This document shows positions 28,251 to 34,816 of a DNA stretch of 64,000 nt, piece after piece. How positions within the stretch are numbered: position 1 is the first letter of the stretch; each line of letters opens with the position of its first letter. The stretch comes from an uncultured Bacilli bacterium (GTDB lineage Bacteria; Bacillota_I; Bacilli_A; RF39; UBA660): assembly GCA_947626115.1 (NCBI GenBank), contig CANQQX010000003.1, positions 415 through 64,414 on the forward strand, in the 5' to 3' direction. A program made the translations under genes and the position numbers. The notes beneath the pieces were generated by a model. The model saw only the letters and a list, made by a program, of their open reading frames with translations. It searched no databases and was not told where the DNA came from.

Positions 28251-29024
28251 TTATAACTCTACATTATTTAAAATATCTATTAATTCATCTTTGCTTACAT
28301 TATATCCTTGTATATTATAAAAGATATTATTGTATACAAAAGTGCAGAATGTTTGTGGCCAATATTTACTCTCTGACCATTTAATAATATTAACATCTAA
28401 ATTTAATTTATCTAGGTGATAAGTCTCTAAAAATTTTGATACTGATGATGTTCCCTTTAAAATACTAATATTTTTAAATTCTTCTTCATCATCTTTCGTA
28501 GCATATTGAGTCATAAAGTTTATATCTACTTGTAAATATTTCTTTTTCCGTGTTTCTTCTTTATTCAAATCATATTCACTATAATTATCATCATTTTGTA
28601 ATTTTATAACCCTTATATTTTCATTTTCATCTAATGTTAATTCACAAATATTATAACTATCTTTATTGAAGTTATTAAATTTTAATAATTTTATGTTTAA
28701 TCCTTCTTCTAATTCTTCATGTGTAATATTCTTTTTACATACAAAGTTAGTATTAACTTCTAATTTTTCATTTAAATCTAAATCAAAGATTGTGTCTTTA
28801 CCAAACTTTTCTGTATCTTTCATTTGATAAATATAATCTTCAATGTATTCTTTGGCCATTACTCCAACCCCTAGAAATATAAATAATATTAATATTACAA
28901 TAACAGGTTTTAATATATATCCTTTAGATAATTCTTTTTTATAAATAGTATTATTATATATTTTTTCATCTAATTCTTTAGATACTTTAATATCTTTAAA
29001 AAAATTATTAAATTTATTTTTCAT
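28251..29024 (-). CDS. putative anti-sigma factor (short cytoplasmic N-terminus, one transmembrane segment, extracytoplasmic domain)
   Basis: 257 aa. It overlaps the sigma gene by 11 nt. The transmembrane segment is ILKPVIVILILFIFLGVGVMA. The C-terminal ...YNIQGYNVSKDELIDILNNV recalls DUF4367-type anti-sigma ectodomains (from memory, needs an HMM check). Confidence 0.6.
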   Translation of the reverse strand: MKNKFNNFFKDIKVSKELDEKIYNNTIYKKELSKGYILKPVIVILILFIFLGVGVMAKEYIEDYIYQMKDTEKFGKDTIFDLDLNEKLEVNTNFVCKKNITHEELEEGLNIKLLKFNNFNKDSYNICELTLDENENIRVIKLQNDDNYSEYDLNKEETRKKKYLQVDINFMTQYATKDDEEEFKNISILKGTSSVSKFLETYHLDKLNLDVNIIKWSESKYWPQTFCTFVYNNIFYNIQGYNVSKDELIDILNNVEL

Positions 29025-29496
29025 TGTAAACTCCTTTCATTTCTTTGGCTAAACTTTTAACTATCCTATCTAGTTTAGTTTGAACAGTAGAAGAATTCAT
29101 CTTTAAAATACTCGCTATTTCTTTATGTTTATAACCTTCATAATAATATAAAAATATAAGTATTCTATCTTTAGGTTTAAGTTTAAATAAAGCATCCTTT
29201 AAATCGTTATCATAATTTTCTAAGTAATATAAATTATTTTCTTCTTTTTTATCCATTTGAATTACTCTTTTATACCAAGAAGATAAAAAATAATTTTTAC
29301 ATTCATTAACTGTAACTTTAATACACCATTTTTTAATTTCAATATCACTTGTAAATTTATTTAAATTTTTAAATAATTTAATAAAGACACTTTGAGTAAT
29401 ATCTTCCGCTTCATTTATATTTTTAGTATAACTAAATGCTAATCTTAAAATATCATTTTTGTATAAATTATAAATTCTAATAAATTCTTCTTCCAT
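29014..29496 (-). CDS. ECF-type sigma-70 family RNA polymerase sigma factor
   Basis: Region 2 (AEDITQSVFIKLF...) and region 4 (LKPKDRILIFLYYYEGYKHKEIASILKMNSSTVQTKLDR) are present. The ATG at 29496 is preferred; the track start at 29523 is a TTG. Confidence 0.88.
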   Translation of the reverse strand: MEEEFIRIYNLYKNDILRLAFSYTKNINEAEDITQSVFIKLFKNLNKFTSDIEIKKWCIKVTVNECKNYFLSSWYKRVIQMDKKEENNLYYLENYDNDLKDALFKLKPKDRILIFLYYYEGYKHKEIASILKMNSSTVQTKLDRIVKSLAKEMKGVYNEK

Positions 29497-29587
29497 TACG
29501 CACCACTTTGAAAGGCCTTTCAATATAATAACAAATAAGATTATTAAAATAACTCAAAAAAATAAAAAAGCAATTTACTTTTTTATT

Positions 29588-31798
29588 TTAAGGCAATTTT
29601 ATTTTAAATGCTGTATTAGGAGTTTTTCCGTCTCCACTTTCTATTATGACATCATCTCTCAATGTAATAGTTGGTTTTACGGCAAAATAATTGTCATATG
29701 TTTCTTGAAATATACCTTGGGTTTCTGTCTCAAATACTCCAATCATTGGGTAGTTACCATCACCATATGGAGTCATTGTAGCAGTCTTATAGTCGTGTGT
29801 ATCAGTTCCTCCTAATGGATATGCAAACAATTCACCAACAATTGGAAGTCCAACATATCCAGTCCAAGTATTCGTTGTTTTTTCACAGTCTTTAGTAGTT
29901 TCAGAAGTGTCTGTTTTTTTACATATCGTATTTTTATAACTACCAATCCTGCTTCCATCTTCAGGTTTAAGTTGAGCAGGATTTACATAATAAGTATCTT
30001 CAACCAAATATTTTTTTATACCTTGTTTTTCAAGTTTTTCAAGCCATTCATTATTTAAATACGATAGCCAATAATTATCATTATTTGACTTAACAATTCT
30101 ATCATATGTCTCACTTACACCAGCATCTACATCATATTTAAAATCCATACTACCAAATTGTTTTTTCATAACAGAACCATTATCATCTTTGATATAATTA
30201 GCACTTTTTAATTTAGTTACAAATTTTCCATCTTCATTTTTATGAATATTTACTATACGATATAACATATCATTAATCTGAACAAGTTCTCCTGGAGTTC
30301 TTGTATTTATTGGATCTCCAACTTCAGCTGCTTCTATATCATCTAATAAAACAAAGGGATTAGTTTGTGTTCCTTCACCACTAAATTTAACATCTTTCTT
30401 TAAAACCACCACAGGGCGAACTCCAAAAGCAGTATTTGGCACATCCCATCCTGCTATTCCTCCAAATTGATTAACTCCATTAACACCTGTATAAGGAGGA
30501 GGGGTCAAATTAAAATATGATGATAACCACCAACTATGTCCAAGATTTAAAAAACTACTGCTACCAAACAAAGCAGTCTTGTTAAATTCGTAAGGATTCA
30601 TTAAACCAACGGGAGCTTTTGTTGTATTAGGTGGCTTAATATAGCACCAATTATACCAAGGTGATATATCCCAAGTAGCATCTTCCACTAATATGTTTTC
30701 ATGATTATATAAAGTATCTAAAAAATCTTCATTTAACCATTGTTTTATATATGAGTTTTCAAAGAATCCATCTTCACCAAAATTTATAGCCGATAAAATA
30801 TTTTCGGTAATCATTTTAACTTTTCCATCATTTAATATTTCTGTTATTCTCCACATATAACCCGAATACCAAACATAATTAAAATTCAAACATTCATTAG
30901 TTCCCCAAAAATAGGTATGATAAGGTGGTGTATCATCAAACCCATTATCACCATTACAAGGTGAATCAGTTTGGGATATATTAAAGTATCCACCATTATA
31001 ATTACACATTTTACTATTAGCAATATCCATTATAAATTCACCTAATGTTTTATTTTGAATAATTACATCACCAGTAACATTTTCTATTTGTAAAACATTA
31101 CTTTCTAAAGTAAAATCAGTTACTTTTATATTACCTACATATACATTTAAATTATTTCTATTAATACTATTATCTAAAGTAACTTTTAAAGTATCACCAT
31201 CCATTATTTCTTTAGGATATTTACTTATATTTATATTAAATCCAGAATAAGTTATTTTATGGAATTCTCTAAAATCAATATTTAAATTTAAATTATAAGT
31301 ATCTTTATCACTTCTAAAACCATTCTCTTTATATTTTATAGTAATTTTTATTTCTTTTTTTATTCCTAAATTACATCTATCAACACCACATATTTTATCT
31401 TTTAATTTATAATCATCGATAACCATTTCTAAATTATCTGGTAAATTATCAATTTTTAATATACCCATATCAACATTACCATAATTAATTATTTCTACTA
31501 TAAATGATACAGTAGAACTTTCATTAGGTAAAGTTATATCAGCAAATACTTTGTTATGATCATAATCTTGGGATAATATAATACCACCATTTGTTATACC
31601 ATTACTTACAACAGACGTAACTCTTATATCTTTTTTAGCATTTACCCTTACTGATAAATCATTAACATATAATTTTTGTAAAAAAGCCGACCAACCAATA
31701 GTTAAAAATAATAAACAACAAAAAAGAATACTCAATATTAAATATTGATAATTTTTTCCTTTTTTATATCTTTTATTTATATTTGCTATTTTTTTCAT
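29588..31798 (-). CDS. large secreted protein with a TasA/TapA-type (SipW-dependent) signal, an N-terminal domain like the 221-aa protein, and two copies of the domain found in the 466-aa protein
   Basis: The signal ...LLFLTIGWSAFLQKLYV compares with TasA GGGTWAAFND. Repeats include MWRITEILNDGKV...HSWWLSS...GVRPVVVLKKDVKFSGEGTQTNP and MLYRIVNI...AVKPTITLRDDVIIESGDGKTPN. Confidence 0.75.
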   Translation of the reverse strand: MKKIANINKRYKKGKNYQYLILSILFCCLLFLTIGWSAFLQKLYVNDLSVRVNAKKDIRVTSVVSNGITNGGIILSQDYDHNKVFADITLPNESSTVSFIVEIINYGNVDMGILKIDNLPDNLEMVIDDYKLKDKICGVDRCNLGIKKEIKITIKYKENGFRSDKDTYNLNLNIDFREFHKITYSGFNINISKYPKEIMDGDTLKVTLDNSINRNNLNVYVGNIKVTDFTLESNVLQIENVTGDVIIQNKTLGEFIMDIANSKMCNYNGGYFNISQTDSPCNGDNGFDDTPPYHTYFWGTNECLNFNYVWYSGYMWRITEILNDGKVKMITENILSAINFGEDGFFENSYIKQWLNEDFLDTLYNHENILVEDATWDISPWYNWCYIKPPNTTKAPVGLMNPYEFNKTALFGSSSFLNLGHSWWLSSYFNLTPPPYTGVNGVNQFGGIAGWDVPNTAFGVRPVVVLKKDVKFSGEGTQTNPFVLLDDIEAAEVGDPINTRTPGELVQINDMLYRIVNIHKNEDGKFVTKLKSANYIKDDNGSVMKKQFGSMDFKYDVDAGVSETYDRIVKSNNDNYWLSYLNNEWLEKLEKQGIKKYLVEDTYYVNPAQLKPEDGSRIGSYKNTICKKTDTSETTKDCEKTTNTWTGYVGLPIVGELFAYPLGGTDTHDYKTATMTPYGDGNYPMIGVFETETQGIFQETYDNYFAVKPTITLRDDVIIESGDGKTPNTAFKIKLP

Positions 31799-31807
31799 TA
31801 TGCACCA

Positions 31808-32932
31808 TTAATTATTTACTTCCATATCACTAGCTTTTATTTGTAATAAGTAAACATCATTATCATTTTTTATATAAAAATAACACTTTTGATGCTTAAC
31901 AATATTGTAATACATTATAGGTAATTTTAAATTATCTCTTACATCTAGTAATTCATTAAATTTATCAATCTTAATAATACTACTATTTTTATAATCAATA
32001 CCAGTAGTAGTTTCGACAATTAAACGATCATATTCTTTTAATATTTTACTTAAAAATTTATCATATACACTTTTCTTTTTAAATACTAATGATACTAACT
32101 TAATAATTTTACTTATATAAATTGCAGATATAATAAATAATACTATTTCTAATATTAATATTTTATAATTAAAAATCATTTCTTTATCCGCGATTGCTTT
32201 TTTCATTAATGCTGTATCTTGACTATCAAATTTAATTTCAATGCTTCGTTCTGATAATGGAATTATTATTGAACTTTCTGTTTTATCATTAATATTTAAT
32301 TTATCATCTTTACTTTTTTTATCTACTTCTAAATAAACTTTTAAATAACTATTAGTTTCTACTCCATAAGAAGAATTAAAACTGCTAACTAAACTATTAT
32401 AATAATCATAATCTATATCAATACTTTCATTTATTGCTAAAGTATTAGTATTAACCATTTCTTTATTTTGGGTATCTAAAAGTACATATTTCTTAGTAAA
32501 ATAATTTGTACTACCAGTTGAATTAGATATAATTAAATCACCTAGAATTCGATAATCAAAATTAACATCAAATATTTCATCTATTTTAAATAAATAAGAG
32601 AAATCAATATCTATTTTATCAATTAAACTAGCAACATATATCATATTTTCACCTAAATATTCAGTATCATAGAATTCATTTGGTTTAACATATACTTTAT
32701 AATTTATTCCATTATTTTCGTTATAATTAACAACTTTTGATTCCGTATATTGAATAGTTTTAGTAGCAACATAGAGACATAAAGAAAAAGCCACAAGAAA
32801 AATAGCCATGTTAAAAATCATTCTAAATCTAAAGCTAAAATGGCGTCTGTATTTACTTTTTAATTTTAGTTTTTTCGTACTTTTATTAGATTGATTGTTC
32901 TCGGCTGATTTTAACTCTTCCTTTCCTTTCAT
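31808..32932 (-). CDS. bitopic membrane protein of unknown function (possibly DUF5305-like)
   Basis: 374 aa. A basic N-terminus is followed by a transmembrane segment (FNMAIFLVAFSLCLYVA), a loop of about 210 aa, a second transmembrane segment (ILILEIVLFIISAIYISKII) and a cytoplasmic tail of about 100 aa. It is tightly packed in the operon. Confidence 0.65.
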   Translation of the reverse strand: MKGKEELKSAENNQSNKSTKKLKLKSKYRRHFSFRFRMIFNMAIFLVAFSLCLYVATKTIQYTESKVVNYNENNGINYKVYVKPNEFYDTEYLGENMIYVASLIDKIDIDFSYLFKIDEIFDVNFDYRILGDLIISNSTGSTNYFTKKYVLLDTQNKEMVNTNTLAINESIDIDYDYYNSLVSSFNSSYGVETNSYLKVYLEVDKKSKDDKLNINDKTESSIIIPLSERSIEIKFDSQDTALMKKAIADKEMIFNYKILILEIVLFIISAIYISKIIKLVSLVFKKKSVYDKFLSKILKEYDRLIVETTTGIDYKNSSIIKIDKFNELLDVRDNLKLPIMYYNIVKHQKCYFYIKNDNDVYLLQIKASDMEVNN

Positions 32933-32955: not shown

Positions 32956-34083
32956 TTACAACTCGTTTATTAAAACGGTTGGAATGCCAATATAAGGTAT
33001 TTTAATATTAACAATGCCAATTATATTATCTTTGGTAAGAACAAAATTATCTCTTTTTTCATTAGCGTCTCCCTTAGTATAAAAATAATAATCATTTAGT
33101 ACTTTTGCTTTTTCTACTAAACGATGGACTATTACTGTGCCATTATAATTAAACGCTATTACTTGTCCTTCTTTAAGACTATCATAATCATCATCAATTT
33201 TTTCAACTATTACAACATCACCTTTTCTAATAGCCGGAGTCATACTACCACTTGCAATAGCAACAGCTTGATAATGAAAATATCCTGATGTAAAATAAAC
33301 TAATAAAATGACTAATAAGGCCGGTACTATATAGGCTTCTAATCTTCTTTTCTTTTGCTTCCTTTCTACTTCTTCATCATGATCACTTTTTAAAAATAAA
33401 TAGACACGATAACAAAACAATACAGGTAATAATAATCTAATAATAGACATTATATATTGATTAGGATTAGGTACAATTGGAATTAAGTATAAATATAATT
33501 CTAATACTAATCTAAAAAGAATCATTGGTTTATATCCTACATTCATTCCTATATAAGATGCTACTATATTTGTACTAACGGCAGGTAAGACGGTTAATGA
33601 TAAAAATATAAAGGCATTATATACAGAATCGTGTAGGTTATAATATAAAGTTGTTGAAATGTCTATAAAGACAAAAAGCAAGGTCGTTGTAACAATTAAT
33701 AACCAGCTTCCTTCAGATTTACATAAAAATTGATATCTTAAAAATTCTTTAGTAATAATTAATAATATTATAGGTAGTATTATATTAATAAAATCTTTAA
33801 TATTATAATAATTATCAGTTCTAGCAAAACTTATTATTAATCCTGATAAATAGAATAAAAGAAAAAAGATTAATAGAAATATAATACAGTCAAAAATAAT
33901 ATCTTTTGTGTAACGATGTCGATCTTTCTCAAATCCGAAGAAAAACTTGAACATAACAACTATAATAAGTAAAAATATTAACATTAAATAATCACTTAAT
34001 ATACTTGAAACAAAACTATTTATACACAAAACAATGAAAATAATTGTTTCAAATGCTAACAAACGCTTATACCCACTTTTCAT
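32956..34083 (-). CDS. sipW: SipW/archaeal-type signal peptidase I fused to an N-terminal polytopic membrane domain of about 250 aa
   Basis: The C-terminal 120 aa contain ASGSMTPAIRKGDVVIV...VIVHRLV...TKGDAN (a Ser/His ER-type SPase signature). The preceding 250 aa form about 7-8 hydrophobic helices. Confidence 0.8.
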   Translation of the reverse strand: MKSGYKRLLAFETIIFIVLCINSFVSSILSDYLMLIFLLIIVVMFKFFFGFEKDRHRYTKDIIFDCIIFLLIFFLLFYLSGLIISFARTDNYYNIKDFINIILPIILLIITKEFLRYQFLCKSEGSWLLIVTTTLLFVFIDISTTLYYNLHDSVYNAFIFLSLTVLPAVSTNIVASYIGMNVGYKPMILFRLVLELYLYLIPIVPNPNQYIMSIIRLLLPVLFCYRVYLFLKSDHDEEVERKQKKRRLEAYIVPALLVILLVYFTSGYFHYQAVAIASGSMTPAIRKGDVVIVEKIDDDYDSLKEGQVIAFNYNGTVIVHRLVEKAKVLNDYYFYTKGDANEKRDNFVLTKDNIIGIVNIKIPYIGIPTVLINEL

Positions 34084-34110
34084 TCCTTTCCTCCTAAATA
34101 GTTTTGTGAA

Positions 34111-34139
34111 AATATATTAAAGATTAACTTTAATATATT
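34111..34139 (-). terminator. 12-bp perfect AT-rich hairpin just after the major-subunit gene, a possible attenuator or mRNA-stabilising element
   Basis: AATATATTAAAG-attaa-CTTTAATATATT. Only a short U tract follows it on the minus strand. Confidence 0.3.
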
Positions 34140-34150
34140 TATTTACTTAA

Positions 34151-34816
34151 TTATGCTCCTGCATTATCTTTAGAACTATAATTTAAAGTAATAGCACCAA
34201 CTGTAACAGAATAATCATTATCAGTTAATGTTGTTCCTTCACCCGCTTTAATAGATAATTTAACTGTTTTGCTTTCACCAGCAGCTAATTTCTTACCAGA
34301 TATTGAAGCTTGATCACCAGTATAATCAGCATCATCTACAGTAAGAGTAACAGTAATAGTTTTACAAGCTGTATTTATTAATTCTGTATTAGCTGTAGCC
34401 ATACCATCTCCGGTAGCAGCACAAGCTAAAGAATCATTGGCAAAATCAATACTTGTTAAATACGCATCCATTTCACCGTTATTTACGACATACCACTCAT
34501 AAGTGATTTCTTGATTATCTTTAGTAATTTTAGCATTAGCATTTACCATAGTAGTTGCTGTAATAGTAGCAGTACCAGCATTTGATTGTCCTGCTTCTTC
34601 ATTGGTAATAGTACCTGTAACAGTTTGTTGACCTTCTTCGATTTTAGATTCTGTATTAGAAAATTCTACATTAAATTTAGAAGAATCAGCTTTAACTTCA
34701 GCAGTTGGTGTAATAGTTAATTGAGCAGTGAAAGCAGCAAAACCTACTGATAAACCAACAACAGCGATTACTAAAGCAATTATAGCAATAACTTTTGAAT
34801 CTCTATTCTTTTCCAT
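34151..34816 (-). CDS. TasA-like secreted protein with a SipW-type signal peptide, the probable major fibre or matrix subunit
   Basis: 221 aa. The signal is IAIIALVIAVVGLSVGFAAFTAQL. The mature part is Thr/Ala/Gly-rich. The gene is visibly more GC-rich than its neighbours and has a strong RBS (GAAGGAGGTG). Confidence 0.75.
   Translation of the reverse strand: MEKNRDSKVIAIIALVIAVVGLSVGFAAFTAQLTITPTAEVKADSSKFNVEFSNTESKIEEGQQTVTGTITNEEAGQSNAGTATITATTMVNANAKITKDNQEITYEWYVVNNGEMDAYLTSIDFANDSLACAATGDGMATANTELINTACKTITVTLTVDDADYTGDQASISGKKLAAGESKTVKLSIKAGEGTTLTDNDYSVTVGAITLNYSSKDNAGA

Follow-up and report, generated by a model that had tools for sequence, protein, structure and literature searches.

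A Sec11/SipW-type signal peptidase naturally fused to a CAAX-protease-like membrane domain lacking catalytic histidines, probably a built-in helper for fibre-subunit processing

Prokaryotic type I signal peptidases are usually seen as stand-alone enzymes. SpdC and LnsB, pseudo-enzymes of the CPBP family, partner extracellular enzymes at the membrane surface; SpdC (LyrA) is a non-catalytic member that scaffolds the single-pass extracellular hydrolase SagB, and the motif residues of LnsB can be mutated without effect. In Staphylococcus aureus such a protein acts on a signal peptidase. [quoted passage not shown]

A second body of work concerns extracellular fibres. TasA owes its specificity as a SipW substrate to an aromatic residue at P2′ (PMC10269814). 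A preprint on AbpX (bioRxiv 10.64898/2026.01.04.697558) describes an associated signal peptidase I with ten TM helices and a DUF5305 protein as its likely accessory subunit, which it likens to an accessory subunit of the eukaryotic signal peptidase complex; in AbpX, of the TasA superfamily, position 2 of the amphipathic donor strand is aromatic and the pI is near 4. The preprint gives the extra helices one sentence, does not say what they are, and mentions neither CAAX, Rce1 nor CPBP. Within the library searched, we found no paper naming both ‘CPBP’ and ‘SipW’.

Here we describe a gene that joins these two kinds of protein in a single chain. It lies in a window of 64,000 nucleotides, the whole stretch of DNA analysed; coordinates below are positions in the window, and all features are on the minus strand. 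The gene (32956..34083) encodes 375 amino acids, as delimited by the open reading frame listing, full-length homologues and an AlphaFold2 model, and a strong Shine-Dalgarno sequence read from the DNA, AGGAGG (34090..34095), has the ATG 7 nt downstream. The model, built from 141 sequences, has a mean pLDDT of 93.3 and a pTM of 0.69. Together with a hydropathy scan, it resolves eight N-domain helices, a Lys/Arg-rich linker and an anchor helix. The N-domain (residues 1-234; 33382..34083) comprises eight TM helices (3-24, 31-49, 59-84, 95-122, 127-146, 154-181, 185-200 and 209-234) in a CPBP/Rce1-like arrangement supported by the model helices, Foldseek and hhalign. The linker (residues 235-248; 33340..33381) has a pLDDT of 66-72 and no secondary structure in the model. 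The peptidase anchor helix, TM9 (residues 249-265; 33289..33339), is a model helix within which the TIGR02228 match begins at residue 251. It leads into the S26B catalytic domain (residues 266-375; 32959..33288), which carries S280, H320, D339 and D345 and is defined by TIGR02228, by sequence and fold similarity to SEC11A/C and by conservation. From the positive-inside distribution of Lys and Arg, both ends of the N-domain and the linker are predicted to be cytoplasmic and the catalytic domain extracellular. The earlier note on this DNA had described a polytopic N-terminal region of about 250 residues with some seven or eight helices, in a protein far longer than Bacillus SipW; the model bears out both points, with eight helices plus the anchor helix and 375 residues against about 190.

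By sequence, the C-terminal domain is an ER/archaeal-type signal peptidase I (S26B) with its catalytic residues intact. In an HMM scan, TIGR02228 (sigpep_I_arch) matched residues 251-372 with 82.2 bits against a cut-off of 51.85, and Pfam Peptidase_S26 and S24 also matched that segment, in agreement with the earlier placement of the catalytic strings within the last 120 or so residues. The nearest solved structures by sequence are human SEC11C (E 2e-9) and SEC11A (E 7e-9), which also lead the Foldseek matches against the PDB (E 4e-6). S280 in ASGSM, H320 in VHRL and D339 in TKGDAN are 97-99% conserved among 141 homologues and correspond in the alignment to SGSM, VHR and KGD of SEC11A/C, which is the Ser-His type of active site and not the Ser-Lys type. 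The SipW equivalog NF046067 scored 60.5 bits, far below its cut-off of 190; the protein is therefore ‘SipW-type’ and no SipW ortholog. What it shares with SipW and Sec11 is the catalytic fold and the Ser-His-Asp residues and, with SipW, a role that in SipW is dedicated to TasA-type substrates with an aromatic P2′. SipW, however, has about 190 residues with N- and C-terminal TM helices, whereas here the C-terminus follows directly after the IPYIGIPTVLINEL segment, the model has no C-terminal TM helix, and eight extra helices stand in front. An S26B subunit amid non-catalytic membrane subunits also recalls the eukaryotic signal peptidase complex (SEC11 with SPCS1/2/3), a likeness that is architectural only.

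The gene sits in a recurrent cassette. Upstream of it is a gene for a 221-amino-acid acidic secreted beta-sandwich protein (34151..34816; model pLDDT 89.6), the presumed substrate, and a perfect 13-bp AT-rich hairpin separates the two genes (34110..34140; -9.7 kcal/mol, z = -5.05 against shuffles). Downstream follow a 374-amino-acid DUF5305 membrane protein (31808..32932; PF17231, 35.4 bits against a cut-off of 29), a putative accessory subunit of the peptidase, and a 736-amino-acid secreted protein (29588..31798) with a subunit-type N-terminus and a jackhmmer link to the subunit family, likely a tip or adhesin and a second substrate. With a 12-sequence alignment as query we retrieved 80 related loci. 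In 76 of them the peptidase gene is preceded by subunit homologues; in 77 the order runs from one, two or three subunit genes (about 220 amino acids each) through the long peptidase to DUF5305, and about 35 add a protein of 450-965 amino acids with a subunit-type N-terminus. Further downstream in the window lies an ECF sigma/anti-sigma pair, with no counterpart in the 80 related loci.

A polytopic signal peptidase I and DUF5305 thus stand beside a subunit gene here, as at AbpX-type loci. The likeness extends to a TIGR02228-type polytopic peptidase, a small acidic subunit whose amphipathic N-terminal strand bears an aromatic residue at position 2, DUF5305 directly downstream and then a large tip-like protein; for the ‘ten-TM’ peptidases it is drawn to the description in the preprint. 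The mature product of the 221-amino-acid gene has a pI of 4.19 and 13.4% Asp/Glu. Homology of the subunit to AbpX/TasA is plausible, with its acidity, the aromatic residue at +2 and the conserved Leu +6 and Ile +8 in its favour. The acidic residue conserved at position 4 of AbpX is absent from the subunit, position +4 showing no conserved acid among 91 subunits, and the subunit model matched only generic beta-sandwich folds in the PDB, with no TasA/AbpX match. Family scans of the subunit returned weak Ig-like or DUF11 matches, with Peptidase_M73 touched by one of the 91 members.

The conservation of these 91 subunits is concentrated around a predicted cleavage site after G25-F-A27, that is, A27|A28-F29. 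Gly at -3 and Ala at -1 are each present in 83 of 91, with Phe or Tyr at -2 and Ala at +1, and the mature N-terminus continues with Phe or Tyr at +2 (79/91), Leu at +6 (85/91) and Ile at +8 (86/91), then Ala at +12 and Val at +14. The signal peptide aligns without gaps, and its pairwise column identity is 0.37 in the n-region, 0.39 in the h-region and 0.79 in the c-region, against 0.27 in the mature body; the h-region value may be inflated in part by hydrophobic low complexity. Sec signals are not usually so conserved, and the pattern suits recognition of the signal peptide over its full length.

We lean towards reading the protein as a signal peptidase dedicated to a secreted-fibre cassette (subunit or subunits, peptidase and DUF5305), with the N-domain as a built-in partner that docks or selects subunit signal peptides. 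The S26B domain, at the outer face of the membrane, would cut the subunit after G25-F-A27 and so free the N-terminal strand A-F-x-x-x-L-x-I, conserved and amphipathic, to act as donor strand in polymerisation. The CPBP-like domain would pack against TM9 and the catalytic domain, and would dock, or gate and select, the conserved cognate signal peptides, thereby setting the place and timing of subunit cleavage. The best-conserved non-polar features of the N-domain, G81, G85-F86 and P202-I-x-P205, fall in two outer loops; in the model these loops form a small two-stranded sheet adjoining the expected site of the catalytic domain. We consider the architecture and the fold well founded, while the function of the N-domain is what we infer; the substrate-docking or assembly platform put forward in the earlier note is kept as the best functional guess.

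The closest functional analogue is the SpbR-SpsB complex, here in single-chain form. Both couple a CPBP-fold protein with FxxxD at motif 2, non-catalytic in SpbR and probably so here, to a type I signal peptidase. SpbR and SpsB, however, are two proteins, and SpsB is an S26A enzyme of the P-type (Ser-Lys), whereas here one chain carries an S26B peptidase (Ser-His-Asp). That SpbR restrains its peptidase and does not assist it counts against the helper reading. If the analogy held strictly, the N-domain would be an autoinhibitory or regulatory gate holding the peptidase until DUF5305, the growing fibre end or a lipid signal intervened. The direct inhibition of SpsB by SpbR through TM5/TM7 and loop contacts, the shared motif pattern with FxxxD for FxxxH, and the position of G81, G85-F86 and P202-x-x-P205 in outer loops beside the catalytic domain all agree with such a gate, and DUF5305, in 77 of the 80 loci, could be its releasing partner. 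It would nevertheless seem wasteful to tie an inhibitor covalently and permanently, 1:1, to a dedicated peptidase, and the conserved signal peptides of the substrates better suit recognition; we therefore regard a strict gate as rather unlikely.

In the N-domain, K112-E-F-L-R-Y117 (33733..33750) is best read as a degenerate motif 1 of a CPBP-fold domain without catalytic histidines; on the evidence of conservation and hhalign, ExxR is present in place of the full EExxxR. Among the 141 homologues, E113 is found in 140 and R116 in all 141, and they are the sole near-invariant polar residues of the N-domain; Y117 is found in 105. The counterpart of motif 2 (FxxxH), again by conservation and hhalign, is F137-x-x-x-D141 (33661..33675), in which Asp replaces His; F137 is present in 100 homologues and D141 in 99, with Glu instead in 23. 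N172 is kept in 119, R191 in 81 (Arg or Lys in 92) and E195 in 79. In place of motifs 2 and 3 with their catalytic histidines the protein has F137xxxD141 and R191xxxE195, and no N-domain column in the alignment of the 141 homologues holds a conserved His or Cys. With the two catalytic histidines and the Asn/Asp lost, the N-domain is probably not a protease. The predicted topology would put E113 and R116 on TM4 in the cytoplasmic leaflet, across the membrane from S280 and therefore outside the peptidase active site. At that place they could grip a bound signal peptide at its n/h boundary, or else make up a structural salt bridge.

Their near-invariance sets E113 and R116 apart from the dispensable motif 1 of the inhibitory SpbR and from the motifs of LnsB, and suggests that these residues may do something active. 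It keeps alive the idea of retained chemistry, in which the N-domain would be a live, histidine-less intramembrane protease (E113 with D/E141, N172 and R191/E195) that clears the signal peptide or cuts again, giving an enzyme with two active sites. E113 and R116 are indeed under stricter conservation than their counterparts in known dead CPBPs, the four catalytic positions are mostly polar (E113; Asp or Glu at 141 in 122 of 141; Arg or Lys at 191 in 92; Glu at 195 in 79), and CPBP enzymes such as MroQ process peptide leaders. Yet both histidines and the Asn/Asp of an Rce1-type site are missing, no glutamate-only CPBP protease is known, and the i, i+3 spacing of E113 and R116 may denote a plain structural salt bridge. 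Moreover, members of the family from Saccharibacteria have lost D141, N172, R191 and E195 and keep only the Glu-Arg pair, G81/G85-F86, P202-x-x-P205 and P220. We consider a second active site improbable.

We judge the CPBP/Rce1 fold quite probable from the predicted structure together with modest statistics. The top Foldseek matches in the PDB (SEC11A/C, SipA, LexA and SpsB) all fall on the C-terminal domain. Apart from Rce1 and SpdC, both of the CPBP family, the top 50 contain no membrane protein. Methanococcus Rce1 (4cad_C/F) aligned over 262-266 columns with a probability of 0.89-0.91 and a target-normalised TM of 0.43-0.46, and S. aureus SpdC (6u0o_A) over 263 columns with a probability of 0.91 and a target-normalised TM of 0.54; the E-values for the two proteins were 0.1-0.4. 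These matches describe an eight-TM Rce1-type fold, the query being a predicted model.

Profile comparison pointed the same way. We aligned N-domain profiles by hhalign with 17 canonical PF02517 proteins from the host genome and its relatives, with reversed profiles as the control. A 31-sequence profile gave a probability of 53-56% (score 29-36) forward and 2-4% (16-22) reversed, the 141-sequence profile 20-21% (23-30) and 2.6-5% (17-22), and the core alone (residues 92-212) 5-11% (17-24) and 1.5-2% (15-18). The signal is weak, yet above the reversed control in every setting. Its register was constant across the printed alignments, with K-E113-F-L-R116-Y on EExxFR (with a 2-residue gap) and F137...D141 on F...H; the 31-sequence runs also set R191-x-x-x-E195 on motif 3 (HxxxN). 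The earlier note had set KEFLRYQF aside as not fitting the CPBP motif EExxxR, a judgement contradicted by this alignment with motif 1, by the near-invariant E113 and R116 and by the CPBP-like fold. Compared with Rce1 and the CPBP (Abi, PF02517) family, the N-domain shares the eight-TM fold and, on TM4, a Glu/Arg pair that corresponds to motif 1, but differs in having no PF02517 match, an ExxR motif 1 and histidine-less motifs 2 and 3.

Other searches with the N-domain were negative. Its first 247 residues matched no Pfam or NCBIfam model up to E = 10, the CPBP models included. A sequence profile search of the PDB returned nothing beyond weak MdfA noise (E about 0.05), and a BFVD fold search returned peptidase/LexA-domain matches alone and none for the N-domain. 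Exosortase/archaeosortase, rhomboid and PrsW were considered for the N-domain and rejected, there being no conserved Cys, Ser or His and no NCBIfam match. With the CPBP HMMs silent, the hhalign probabilities falling and the Foldseek E-values at 0.1-0.4, the fold call therefore comes mainly from structure prediction.

The same figures leave some room for the eight helices being a lineage-specific anchor or an unrelated bundle that resembles CPBP by chance: no family HMM matches, TM scores are 0.43-0.54, and other alignments lower the hhalign probability to 11-21%. Against chance, both independent membrane-protein matches come from one family, the eight helices are all aligned in their proper order, and the sole invariant polar pair lands on motif 1, with the reversed controls beaten throughout. 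Conservation of the N-domain from Bacillota to Saccharibacteria argues against a mere anchor. We give either version little credence and retain the CPBP/Rce1-like fold.

The long architecture is widespread. A search of 5.8 billion proteins in 90%-identity clusters matched 1,293 clusters at E<=0.001; the best 120 of these are 374-398 amino acids long, nearly all exactly 375, and come from independent assemblies, and the few that bear a name are entered as no more than ‘signal peptidase I [Bacilli bacterium]’. When the 50%-identity representatives were searched exhaustively, 435 proteins matched at E<=1e-30, and 133 of the best 150 representatives have 355-400 amino acids and match end to end. 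Gut and rumen MAGs are the source of the 80 named loci; their labels are Bacilli, ‘Tenericutes’/Mycoplasmatota, Erysipelotrichaceae or Clostridia, and four are Candidatus Saccharibacteria/Nanosyncoccaceae genomes, whose proteins are about 30% identical from end to end. Of 200 genomes sampled from the class, 17 encode the N-domain, without exception in open frames of 362-441 amino acids; they include 11 of the 20 genera drawn from the family to which the window belongs.

Within the host genome (1.27 Mb in 56 contigs), the cassette is present twice, and we identified three S26B peptidases: the present one, a 361-amino-acid paralog and an ordinary SipW-like enzyme of 231 amino acids with a C-terminal TM helix. 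The paralog, on another contig, is 30% identical across both domains, and its neighbours are a 166-amino-acid secreted protein and a 302-amino-acid protein at the DUF5305 position. An assembly or sequencing artefact fusing two genes, which the earlier note had named as a possible refutation, has a negligible probability given the full-length homologues in independent assemblies and at the 80 MAG loci and the paralog of the same architecture in the same genome.

The alternative offered there, that a second gene product had been fused on, is true in an evolutionary sense. As for whether relatives encode the N-domain as a gene of its own, two N-domain profile searches and the 200 genomes of the class yielded none; every protein matched by the two profiles is fused and about 370-390 amino acids long. 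Five shorter entries considered as lone N-domains (P0309, P0327, P0166, P0168 and P0218) were rejected as fragments, since they end in TM9 or shortly before it, or lose the reading frame. The earlier note had also asked whether long SipW forms are common and already characterised: common they are, while their characterisation amounts to one mention in the 2026 preprint.

In aggregate, the gene is a natural fusion of a Sec11/SipW-type peptidase with a CAAX-protease-like membrane domain that lacks the catalytic histidines, the latter probably a built-in helper for fibre-subunit processing. The long architecture was already known from the single preprint sentence and the partnership of CPBP proteins with peptidases was known in trans; here an S26B peptidase and a probable CPBP pseudo-enzyme are combined in one chain. 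The fusion is ‘Rosetta-stone’ evidence that a partnership like that of SpbR and SpsB, described in 2025, is older and broader than one genus. One may go further and suppose a prokaryotic signal-peptidase holo-complex, composed of the CPBP-fold domain, the S26B domain and DUF5305, that reads the whole signal peptide within the membrane, through the former protease cavity with its Glu-Arg pair, and couples cleavage to donor-strand polymerisation. This idea is tentative and, on present evidence, doubtful; were it true, then together with SpbR-SpsB it would make degenerate CPBP proteins general partners of type I signal peptidases across bacteria. For the unexplained ‘ten-TM’ peptidases at TasA/AbpX-like fibre loci, the analysis supplies a fold along with two residues that can be tested, E113 and R116. 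Such loci are common in uncultured gut Bacilli and Saccharibacteria, where they may offer a compact two- or three-gene system for coupling signal-peptide cleavage with fibre assembly.

Across the 91 homologues of the window's secreted subunit (34151-34816), the signal peptide is the better conserved part of the protein: residues 1-27 are constant in length and more conserved than the mature protein, and the conserved portion includes the n-region M-E-K-x-R. Using jackhmmer, we found the same type of signal peptide, together with the N-terminal region, in the 736-aa protein encoded at 29588-31798, which also carries a weak DUF6273 match (E 0.007). The 736-aa protein probably serves as a tip subunit or adhesin and is cut by the same peptidase as the subunit.

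Between the subunit and long peptidase genes, after the subunit stop codon and before the peptidase ribosome-binding site, lies a perfect 13-bp AT-rich hairpin on the minus strand (34110-34140; dG -9.7 kcal/mol, z -5.05). This hairpin may act as a partial terminator or attenuator, setting a high subunit-to-peptidase ratio.

The cassette occurs once more in the same genome, in diverged form, on another contig (L008, 318-2764). Its overlapping or abutting genes specify a secreted subunit of 166 aa, a long peptidase of 361 aa that shares 30% identity with that of the window, and a 302-aa protein at the DUF5305 position. On a further contig (L006, 1423-2118), downstream of a gene for a membrane-anchored protein of 236 aa, lies the gene for an ordinary SipW-type peptidase of 231 aa that has a C-terminal transmembrane helix. 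Short and long S26B peptidases thus coexist in this genome, beside a bacterial-type LepB on contig L001.

In a sheep rumen Bacilli MAG (L100, 4001-5113), the long-form homologue has Asn in place of the catalytic Ser (IGTNNMSP) and TMSD in place of TKGD, and retains the Glu-Arg pair of the N-domain. This homologue resembles a pseudo-peptidase variant of the long form and recalls SipA of S. pyogenes.

The operon of the window ends with an ECF sigma factor and a 257-aa putative anti-sigma protein (28251-29523). None of the 80 related loci has a counterpart; this regulatory pair is a lineage-specific addition. Full-length long-form peptidases with ~30% identity are also encoded, downstream of subunit genes, in four Candidatus Saccharibacteria/Nanosyncoccaceae MAG loci (L101, L107, L113 and L119). 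Unless these contigs are mis-binned, their presence suggests that the long form has spread beyond Bacillota.
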